From: Methanobacterium sp. Maddingley MBC34
GTDB lineage: Archaea; Methanobacteriota; Methanobacteria; Methanobacteriales; Methanobacteriaceae
Reading direction: 5' to 3'
NCBI GenBank assembly: GCA_000309865.1
Contig: AMGN01000091.1
Coordinates: forward strand, 3,530-67,529
DNA: 64,000 bases
Translations under genes and position numbers: made by a program
Notes under the pieces: generated by a model
The model's database searches: none
Seen by the model: only the letters and a program-made list of their open reading frames with translations
Told to the model about the DNA's origin: nothing
In this document: positions 58,768 to 60,437 of the stretch, piece by piece
Position numbering within the stretch: position 1 is the first letter of the stretch
Layout of the letters: the number at the start of each line of letters is the position of its first letter

Positions 58768-59535
58768 ATGAGGTCGATCTGGTCAGGCTCTTTAAAATTC
58801 GGAACAATTTTCATACCCATCAGACTGTACGCTGCAAGTGAAAACCTCCACATAGGGTTTCACCTTGTTCATAAAACCGATTGTGGCCGTGTTCATTATA
58901 AAAAGGTTTGTGAAAAGGATGGTAAAGAACTTAAACCCCATGAAATCGCCAAAGCAATAAATATTGCAGGGGAATGCATCCAGTTCACCGATGATGAGAT
59001 AAAAAATCTCCATCCATTCTCCACCCTGACCATGGAAATAATGGGATTCTGCAAGTACAGTGAAATACCCACAATTTCCCTTTCCAAACCATACTACCTC
59101 GGAACTGAAAACCCCAAAAAGAGTGGTACTGGAAAGAGCTTCCATCTCTTGAGGAAAGTCATGGAAACCAAAGAAAAAGTGGCAGTGGTAAAATGGGTTC
59201 AACGCAACAATGAATATATAGGTATGTTGCAAGCCCATGAAAACGGATTTCTCTTAAAGCAGTTACTCCATTTTGAACAGGTAAGATCACAGGAGGAAGT
59301 GGAGATCATCCAGTCCGAAGTTGATGAAGACCTCCTTGAAAAGGCGGTTAAGGTTGCAGATAGTATGACTTTTGATTTTGACTGGACCAGTTACTCTGAA
59401 ACATATAATCAGCAGTTAATGGAATTGATTGAGAAAAAAGCTGCTGGCGAGGCGATAATACCTGAGATAAAACCTCCTGAAACCAGGTCCCTGGAAAAAG
59501 AACTGGAGAAAATGCTGGCAATGATGGAAGAATAG
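58768..59535 (+). CDS. ku: Prokaryotic-type Ku (NHEJ DNA end-binding protein)
   Basis: MRSIWSGSLKFG...IPIRLYAA...FHLVHKTDCGRVHYKKVC...EIAKA...TDDEI, KPYYL, YSETYNQQLMELIEKKAAG. Confidence 0.93.
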   Translation: MRSIWSGSLKFGTIFIPIRLYAASENLHIGFHLVHKTDCGRVHYKKVCEKDGKELKPHEIAKAINIAGECIQFTDDEIKNLHPFSTLTMEIMGFCKYSEIPTISLSKPYYLGTENPKKSGTGKSFHLLRKVMETKEKVAVVKWVQRNNEYIGMLQAHENGFLLKQLLHFEQVRSQEEVEIIQSEVDEDLLEKAVKVADSMTFDFDWTSYSETYNQQLMELIEKKAAGEAIIPEIKPPETRSLEKELEKMLAMMEE

Positions 59536-59549
59536 AATGTGGTGTTTTT

Positions 59550-60437
59550 ATGGAAATGTTGGAGCCTATGCTCAGCAAGTTAATGGAGGGGGAAGTCAAT
59601 TTATCTGGTGTCTGGATCAGTGAGCCTAAACTAGATGGTGAGAGGATCATAGCAATGCGTGAAGGGGATAATATTACTCTTTGGACCCGTAGACACATTG
59701 AAAGTTCATATAAATTCCCTGAAATCATTATGGATCTTAAAAAAAATGTGAAGGGGAATAACTGGATTTTAGACGGGGAGCTTACGGTCCCGGGAGGATT
59801 CCGGAAGCTTTTAAGACGTAACACTGAAGATAAACTGAAAATTTCCCTTTTATCCAGGAAATTACCGGCAACTTTTAACCTGTTTGACATCCTCCGCTTT
59901 CAGGGTGAAGATCTCACAGGCAAACCACTGGTACAGCGCAAAAAAGTGTTGTTAAATGCTGTAGATCCGGGGAAACATATCTGGATAATTCCTTTTAAAA
60001 TAGTAACCACAGAAACAGTTAAAGAATATTTTGAGAAATCCCTCAAGGAGGGTTATGAAGGGTTAATCATTAAAGATGCCAGTTCCAGATATGAAGCTGG
60101 TAAACGATCAGGTAACTGGTTGAAAATCAAAAGATCAGAGACCATTGATGTTAATGTAATCGGGGCAACTAGAAGCACCGGAAGCATAGCTTTTGGGGCG
60201 CTTATCCTGGAGAAAGATGGCCAGTACTTTGGTAAAGTGGGCACCGGTTTTAGTGACACTAACCGATGGGAGATATTGAACTTCTTAGAACAAAATAAGG
60301 CTGAAATTGATGTTGATTTACCATTGGATGTTGATGTGCTTTTAACCACCCGCCCACTACCTGCAGAGATCAAAGCTAATGAAATTGTAAATGGTAAACC
60401 TCGAGCCCCGGTATGGGTGCGCTTCAGATGGGCCTAA
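59550..60437 (+). CDS. ATP-dependent DNA ligase, LigD ligase-domain type, stand-alone
   Basis: Motif I EPKLDGER, III ILDGEL, IIIa LFDIL, IV EGLIIK, V WLKIK, plus GKVGTGF and PRAPVW. Confidence 0.92.
   Translation: MEMLEPMLSKLMEGEVNLSGVWISEPKLDGERIIAMREGDNITLWTRRHIESSYKFPEIIMDLKKNVKGNNWILDGELTVPGGFRKLLRRNTEDKLKISLLSRKLPATFNLFDILRFQGEDLTGKPLVQRKKVLLNAVDPGKHIWIIPFKIVTTETVKEYFEKSLKEGYEGLIIKDASSRYEAGKRSGNWLKIKRSETIDVNVIGATRSTGSIAFGALILEKDGQYFGKVGTGFSDTNRWEILNFLEQNKAEIDVDLPLDVDVLLTTRPLPAEIKANEIVNGKPRAPVWVRFRWA

Follow-up and report, generated by a model that had tools for sequence, protein, structure and literature searches.

A Ku gene and a stand-alone ATP-dependent ligase gene as a putative two-gene end-joining operon in Methanobacterium, with relatives on mobile-element-like contigs

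Can Ku and a bare DNA ligase form an end-joining system by themselves? Prokaryotic NHEJ (non-homologous end joining) is usually described as Ku together with the multifunctional LigD, or with separate ligase (Lig), polymerase (Pol), and phosphoesterase (PE) proteins. The question is raised by a locus of Methanobacterium sp. Maddingley MBC34, in which a 64,000-nucleotide stretch of contig AMGN01000091.1 (positions 3,530 to 67,529 of the forward strand; hereafter the window) contains a ku gene followed by lig, which encodes a 295-aa ATP-dependent DNA ligase. The original prediction, made from the DNA letters, left two options, namely a minimal two-component system or one whose partners are encoded elsewhere. 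The analysis described here indicates that ku and lig probably constitute a chromosomal two-gene operon for pared-down, Ku-dependent DNA end joining. The features of the pair are as follows (positions are those of the window).

58768-59535, + strand: ku, 255 aa, ATG start; bacterial/archaeal-type Ku with a beta-barrel core and a short acidic C-terminus (from the open reading frame (ORF) listing)
59536-59549, + strand: ku-lig spacer, 14 bp (sequence read directly)
59541-59544, + strand: GGTG in the ku-lig spacer, 5 nt ahead of the ligase ATG
59550-60437, + strand: lig, 295 aa, ATG start; minimal ATP-dependent DNA ligase with nucleotidyltransferase and OB domains (ORF listing)

Ku and ligase proteins

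The 255-aa Ku, which is present as one copy in the genome, was matched by the Pfam family PF02735 (E 5.7e-35, 121.4 bits) and passed the NCBIfam equivalog model for NHEJ Ku, TIGR02772 (Ku_bact), with 216.9 bits for a cut-off of 150; residues 2-253 were aligned with profile positions 1-252 of 259. The M. tuberculosis Ku structures 8v53 and 9i91 were aligned end to end with residues 1-251 (116 bits), and by this alignment the protein is predicted to form a homodimeric ring on DNA ends. A Pfam scan at E<=0.01 returned PF02735 alone, with no match to the Gam family, and the matches in the phage database were all mycobacteriophage Ku proteins with 29% identity. The protein thus reads as a bona fide Ku and not as a phage Mu Gam-like protein. 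The original prediction had named grouping with proviral Gam/Ku-like end-protection proteins as a refuting outcome; the Gam-like part of this did not hold, whereas the nearest relatives outside the family were indeed found on mobile-element-like contigs (see below). Ku has no long basic C-terminal extension, as had been noted beforehand, and its last 40 residues form an acidic tail (10 D+E versus 6 K+R, pI 4.7).

In the ligase, the adenylation domain PF01068 was matched at residues 6-194 (129.3 bits), followed by a weak C-terminal match to the OB domain PF04679 (residues 210-293, 22 bits), and the N-terminal DNA-binding domain was absent from the 295-aa protein. The catalytic motifs were judged by invariance in an alignment of the ligase with its relatives. 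Motif I (EPKLDGER with the active-site residue K27), motif III (D75-G76-E77), motif IIIa (F112-D113), motif IV (E170-G171...K175), and motif V (W190, K192, and K194) were invariant, and motif VI (R285, P287, V288, and R291) was likewise intact. The ORFs and the alignment therefore agreed with the arrangement first described (Ku, 14 bp, and a 295-aa ligase with motifs I, III, IIIa, IV, and V), to which motif VI was added. The top NCBIfam model for the ligase was the NHEJ ligase domain TIGR02779. Two DNA ligases were identified in the genome, the 295-aa one and a 568-aa replicative enzyme, while a third ligase-like match was weak and fell under the Pfam cut-off.

The ratio of nonsynonymous to synonymous substitution rates (dN/dS), calculated pairwise against seven relatives, was 0.07-0.10 for ku and 0.11-0.15 for lig, and purifying selection acts on both genes (0.07-0.15).

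Polymerase and phosphoesterase partners

The genome assembly (2.42 Mb in 104 contigs, 97.5% complete) was searched for LigD-type partners using the profiles TIGR02778 and TIGR02777 at E<=0.01 and PF21686 and PF13298 at E<=0.1. As positive controls, TIGR02778 and PF21686 were matched in B. subtilis, and TIGR02777 and PF13298 were matched in M. acetivorans. In the 97.5%-complete genome, no match was obtained for a LigD-type Pol (TIGR02778 or PF21686) or for a LigD-type 3'-phosphoesterase (TIGR02777 or PF13298), and tblastn of the genome with two archaeal Pol queries and one PE query from the same genus gave nothing better than E 0.7. The earlier remark that the 64-kb window is free of PrimPol and PE genes was confirmed and extended to the remaining genome.

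The same picture was obtained across the genus. Pol was found in none of the 25 other Methanobacterium species and PE in one (G003), which does not carry Ku. Both Pol and PE were also missing from five genomes of the genus that are closed or in a single contig, four of them with Ku (G006, G011, G012, and G015) and one without (G024), and none of the Methanobacteriaceae ku-lig loci scanned had a Pol, PE, or HD hydrolase gene within 8 kb. In bacterial loci retrieved by the same ligase scan, PE, Lig, Pol, and Ku stood next to each other or were fused. Because Pol and PE were not found in the genome and are virtually absent genus-wide, a two-gene system without LigD-type partners is favoured over one with partners encoded elsewhere, for which the whole-genome profile searches and tblastn yielded no candidate.

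A PolX of 566 aa with HhH, thumb, and PHP domains is encoded in the genome (L150:748-2448, contig C23). Its palm domain was matched weakly (25 bits), and the enzyme could be either canonical or non-canonical (exonuclease-type). PolX was found in every Ku-bearing relative examined.

The PE of G003 (L023:1483-2061, 208 bits) is a stand-alone LigD-type protein without Ku or Pol, i.e., an orphan PE. It resembles the orphan PEs reported in Methanosarcina.

Linkage, relatives, and origin of the pair

The top matches of both Ku and the ligase were from Methanobacterium sp. BAmetb5, M. formicicum, M. paludis, and M. spitsbergense, in whose genomes they are publicly annotated as plain "Ku protein" and "ATP-dependent DNA ligase". 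In a survey of 60 relatives, Ku was present in 16 of the 25 other Methanobacterium species and in two further genera of the family, and in none of the 14 genomes of two sister families. A pattern scan of species-representative genomes for this ligase yielded 61 Methanobacteriaceae loci, in 59 of which Ku is the gene immediately upstream of the ligase, mostly with a gap of <110 bp; in the related-genome set, this was the case for all 12 loci. One exception (L116) has its ligase cut by the contig end, and the other (L125), from a metagenome-assembled genome (MAG), has a multiply frameshifted ligase and no Ku. The ku-then-lig order in 59 of 61 loci argues against chance pairing. The flanking genes vary by clade: the close clade including this window has ABC-2, two unknown ORFs, ku-lig, and NikR, and M. 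paludis has metal ATPases, HxlR, a PG-binding protein, ku-lig, and DUF488. As the pair is maintained while its flanks change, it behaves as a unit. Together with the counts for Pol and PE given above, this linkage favours the "minimal two-component" option of the original prediction.

Frameshifted ligase or Ku genes were seen in L125:8001-8881, L122:8001-8879, and L109:7215-7970, all from one metagenome-assembly series, and may represent either decay or assembly indel errors.

To retrieve relatives outside the family, 1.84 billion representative proteins were searched exhaustively with the ligase, and the gene context was read for every relative on a long-enough contig. The nearest non-Methanobacterium ligases were few and small (~284-310 aa), with 42-48% identity in this search. 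For the Ku-bearing element-like contigs, the identity was 41-48% for the ligase and 32-44% for Ku. The seven element-like loci are as follows.

L027, 4766-6897: 93-kb contig with Ku, two small ORFs, and Lig, then MCM and an AAA ATPase
L046, 2877-11460: 41-kb contig with tyrosine integrase, Ku, one ORF, Lig, MCM, PCNA, and Hjc
L047, 4583-8855: 35-kb contig with methyltransferases, integrase, Ku, two ORFs, Lig, AAA_5, and VWA
L048, 317-3875: Ku, seven small ORFs, and Lig
L153, 6089-9032: 38.6-kb contig with Ku, four small ORFs, and Lig, amid ~40 same-strand unknown ORFs
L028: 35-kb contig from the bin of a Thermoplasmatota MAG, with Lig, MCM, and PCNA and no Ku
L151: Lig near a PrimPol-primase-AAA fusion

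Ku was located 0.2-2 kb upstream of Lig in five of the seven loci, and arrays of short co-directional ORFs of no known family were present in all seven. The GC content was 45-57% in six of the contigs and 38% in L151, compared with 33-41% for the Methanobacteriaceae loci examined. All seven resemble the replication modules that viruses or integrative elements carry. A PHROGs search with ten of their larger ORFs gave nothing informative, and an IMG/VR scan with the ligase alignment found no relative above 32% identity.

The phylogenies proposed earlier, against bacterial, phage, and archaeal sequences, were constructed for both proteins and placed the Methanobacteriaceae pair and the element-borne pairs in a separate clade. 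In the ligase tree (81 rows, IQ-TREE, site-heterogeneous model), Methanobacteriaceae were monophyletic (100/98) and were joined with the element-borne ligases in a 17-member clade (100/99), which stood apart from multidomain bacterial LigD and also from the group containing the Hydrothermarchaeota ligase. Ku trees were calculated with 40 and 28 rows. Methanobacteriaceae Ku was supported at 100/99, and a split at 100/98 set Methanobacteriaceae, the Ku proteins of five element-like contigs, and some metagenomic relatives apart from 15 Ku proteins of bacterial, plasmid, or Hydrothermarchaeota-like type or from mycobacteriophage Omega. Both proteins thus gave the same grouping, which points to a Ku-ligase lineage common to methanogen chromosomes and archaeal mobile elements.

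The sister of the Methanobacteriaceae Ku (95/90) was a small metagenomic group. Its inspected member (L154:5696-6457) is a solitary Ku without an adjoining ligase; its gene is flanked by PAS histidine kinase genes, and the contig, with 62% GC, is probably chromosomal. The cassette was most likely spread by mobile elements; with a chromosomal-looking solitary Ku as the sister, transfer may have gone in either direction.

Proposed function and setting of the locus

In the proposed mechanism, a Ku homodimer ring would thread onto the ends of a double-strand break, shield them, and hold them together. Ku would then recruit or stimulate the ligase, and the ligase, adenylated on K27, would seal compatible or minimally processed ends. 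As a dedicated LigD-type Pol and PE are missing, any end processing (gap filling or 3'-end cleaning) would be left to general cell enzymes, with the PHP-domain PolX and PriSL, the replicative primase, as candidates. Gene identities, catalytic motifs, conserved adjacency, the lack of Pol and PE, purifying selection, and the position in the trees were observed; that Ku and ligase cooperate, that they join ends in vivo, which enzymes process the ends, and that the pair is transcribed as an operon are inferred. In M. tuberculosis, the Ku C-terminus touches not only the polymerase domain of LigD but also its ligase domain according to PMC13717202, which provides a precedent for direct Ku-ligase contact. 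T4 ligase is reported to be stimulated by M. smegmatis Ku (as cited in PMC7719229), and an archaeal replicative primase is described in PMC12019639 as able to mediate double-strand break repair.

Several observations weigh against this reading. The ligase scored 145.5 bits against TIGR02779 and failed its equivalog-domain cut-off of 227.75; by plain sequence, it was closer to the catalytic core of archaeal Lig1 (3rr5, 102 bits) than to the ligase domain of M. tuberculosis LigD (1vs0, 57 bits). Compared with M. tuberculosis Ku, the protein has a shorter C-terminus and stops before the stretch that holds three of the five LigD-contacting residues reported in PMC13717202 (alignment read). Ku is missing from nine of the 25 other Methanobacterium species, so the system is dispensable. 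PolX is common also in relatives without Ku, and its occurrence with Ku is therefore co-presence only. The kinship with mobile-element copies, in addition, allows a role other than chromosome repair.

That last point leads to the alternative that the pair was derived from an archaeal virus or integrative element and acts mainly on linear foreign or element DNA (circularisation or interference), with chromosome repair being secondary. All seven non-Methanobacteriaceae members of the ligase clade whose context could be judged lie amid integrase, MCM, PCNA, Hjc, methyltransferase, or PrimPol-primase genes, with Ku close upstream in five; the clades shared with element copies are well supported (100/99 for the ligase and 100/98 for Ku), and the contigs of L046, L047, L153, and L028 span 35-41 kb, a plausible size for a whole element. 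We nevertheless regard this alternative as unlikely for the Methanobacteriaceae pair. Its surroundings are ordinary chromosomal genes, with neither integrase nor MCM close by, and a single clade (100/99) of ~60 species under purifying selection agrees with a host function and long residence by vertical descent. The chromosomal-looking contig of the sister Ku allows for transfer in either direction, and no virus hallmark genes were recognised on the element-like contigs by the PHROGs and IMG/VR searches described above.

It is less probable still, and in our estimation quite improbable, that the ligase is Ku-independent (e.g., sealing nicks after base excision repair, like mycobacterial LigC), with Ku alone protecting ends and the adjacency being regulatory only. 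The score under the NHEJ-ligase cut-off would fit such a division, as would the ligases without a nearby Ku (L028 and L151) and the solitary Ku of L154. The order, however, is strict and the spacing mostly tight in the 59 family loci though the flanks change, the linkage is retained on unrelated mobile elements, the Ku and ligase trees are parallel, and the 568-aa replicative ligase is already present for general sealing. A full NHEJ set with Pol and PE in the unassembled part of the genome is the least credible of the alternatives. An assembly in 104 contigs would allow it, but the four profile searches and tblastn revealed neither gene, and the five closed or single-contig genomes of the genus (four with Ku and one without) likewise lack both. 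Two-gene, Ku-dependent end joining is thus retained as the probable function. As a tentative extension, which we hold as possible but less likely than not, Ku-ligase cassettes may be an undescribed end-joining or circularisation module of archaeal viruses or integrative elements in NHEJ-less hosts, and the Methanobacteriaceae operon may be an ancient captured copy repurposed as a minimal repair system.

Among known systems, the NHEJ apparatus of Methanocella paludicola consists of stand-alone Ku, Lig, Pol, and PE (Bartlett et al. 2013/2016, as cited in PMC4797286 and PMC7719229). It is likewise archaeal, with a separate Ku and a ligase of ~300 aa, and the same end-sealing chemistry is expected; the Methanobacterium pair differs in being without Pol or PE and in having ku and lig adjoining in an operon. 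This comparison is one of gene content. In a 2025 survey (PMC11936186), the Methanobacterium Ku is among 19 archaeal Ku proteins and is grouped with Methanocella. The public annotation of the genes and the listing of the Methanobacterium Ku in the literature are thus already known; what is added here is that the pair is conserved throughout the family in the absence of Pol and PE and that it is akin to mobile-element copies. In the literature searched, the coverage of which is incomplete, there was no mention of a genus-wide ligase-only partner of Methanobacterium Ku, of a separate ligase clade, or of nearest kin on archaeal mobile elements, and no description of the Ku-Lig element-like contigs was found.

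The bacterial Ku-LigD systems (M. tuberculosis, P. aeruginosa, and, as YkoV-YkoU, B. subtilis) share the Ku equivalog with the Methanobacterium pair, and the ligase has the nucleotidyltransferase and OB layout of the LigD ligase domain (1vs0). Unlike in those systems, the partner is ligase-only and falls in a clade apart from multidomain LigD (100/99), and Ku has no extended or basic C-terminus. In mycobacterial LigC back-up end joining and the Streptomyces-type "core" NHEJ, stand-alone ATP-dependent ligases act with Ku. Those systems are similar to the present pair in having a small ligase without Pol or PE domains beside Ku; however, the bacteria concerned also have stand-alone polymerases or LigD, of which Methanobacterium has neither, and their ligase clade is different. 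The bacterial NHEJ types are classified in bioRxiv 10.1101/2023.09.30.560322.

For element-borne Ku proteins, the Ku of the mycobacteriophages considered here has 29% identity to the Methanobacterium Ku, stands on the bacterial side of the Ku tree, and has no ligase gene beside it. In mycobacteriophages Omega and Corndog, to which this applies, Ku circularises the genome using host LigD, and they provide a precedent for Ku carried on an element. The contigs L027, L046, L047, L048, and L153 carry the closest kin of both proteins outside the family, with the same gene order and in a shared clade; they differ from the Methanobacteriaceae loci in having one to seven small ORFs between ku and lig, 45-57% GC, and replication modules. 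The Hydrothermarchaeota MAG locus L030:5237-8649 is, like the present one, an archaeal chromosomal Ku-Lig locus, in which Ku, Lig, an HD hydrolase, and a LigD PrimPol are encoded in a row and ku overlaps lig. In contrast to the Methanobacterium locus, it has a LigD-type Pol and the HD hydrolase, and its Ku and ligase fall outside the clade of Methanobacteriaceae and element copies. The HD-domain gene of L030 occupies the place where a phosphoesterase might be expected, and G057, a close relative, has PE elsewhere in its genome.

Ku with a bare ligase, retained across ~60 species, offers a natural test of a minimal end-joining machine and of ligase recruitment by Ku without the polymerase domain that aids recruitment in mycobacteria. 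Endogenous end joining would also affect the fate of CRISPR cuts and linear DNA in the engineering of Methanobacterium, which is poorly tractable. The element kinship points to a vehicle by which NHEJ genes may have become patchily distributed among archaea and hints at Ku use by archaeal viruses or plasmids; to our knowledge, Ku use by viruses or plasmids is so far known only for mycobacteriophages.

The setting of ku-lig is chromosomal, among ordinary genes. Its neighbours encode an ABC-2 transporter, two genus-specific ORFs, NikR, a CMD-family protein, and an MFS transporter; NikR is syntenic with ku-lig in eight close species. No integrase, MCM, or att/tRNA boundary was found beside ku-lig in this genome, the closest tRNA being at 45354, >13 kb off, and no integrase or element-type MCM was found within 8 kb in any Methanobacteriaceae locus. 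MCM matches 6-7 kb from ku-lig in L078 and L091 were considered as element markers and rejected; that of L078 is a 665-aa ORF taken as the host replicative MCM. The surrounding features of the window are as follows.

57592-57987 and 58047-58574, + strand: tandem paralogs upstream of ku, with no Pfam or NCBIfam match
58687-58767, + strand: putative ku-lig promoter and leader, TTTTTATAA, with two TATA-like boxes (58687-58695 and 58731-58739) and a GGAG (58754-58757)
60519-60525, + strand: T7 run in the convergent intergenic region ahead of nikR (sequence read directly)
60545-60958, - strand: nikR, NikR-type nickel-responsive repressor, converging on the ligase 3' end

The tandem paralogs were considered as NHEJ accessory genes and rejected, as the family is present in 22 of the 25 other species of the genus, six of which are without Ku, and is located far from ku-lig in several Ku-bearing genomes. 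In the Ku-less relatives, the paralog pair is not flanked by ABC-2 or NikR genes and no simple empty site was found.

The TATA-like boxes and T-runs were read directly, as a scan for sigma-70 promoters and hairpin terminators is uninformative for an archaeon. A T8 run at 58580-58587, 3' of the gene upstream of ku, suggests that the ku-lig transcription unit is separate from that gene, and the T7 run at 60519-60525 is a possible archaeal oligo-T terminator of ku-lig. The GGTG of the spacer may be a match to the anti-Shine-Dalgarno sequence. Close relatives retain a block, ACAAAyTATTACTyCTTTTTATAACATATA...GGAGAT, 5' of ku. This conserved TATA-like block, the T-runs, and the GGTG-containing 14-bp spacer suggest that ku and lig are transcribed as one unit. 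Four copies of the motif CTCTTTTTA(T/G)AA were found upstream of ku (window 58626-58747), and the two copies proximal to ku fall inside the conserved block. The motif copies could serve as alternative TATA boxes or as sites for a regulator.

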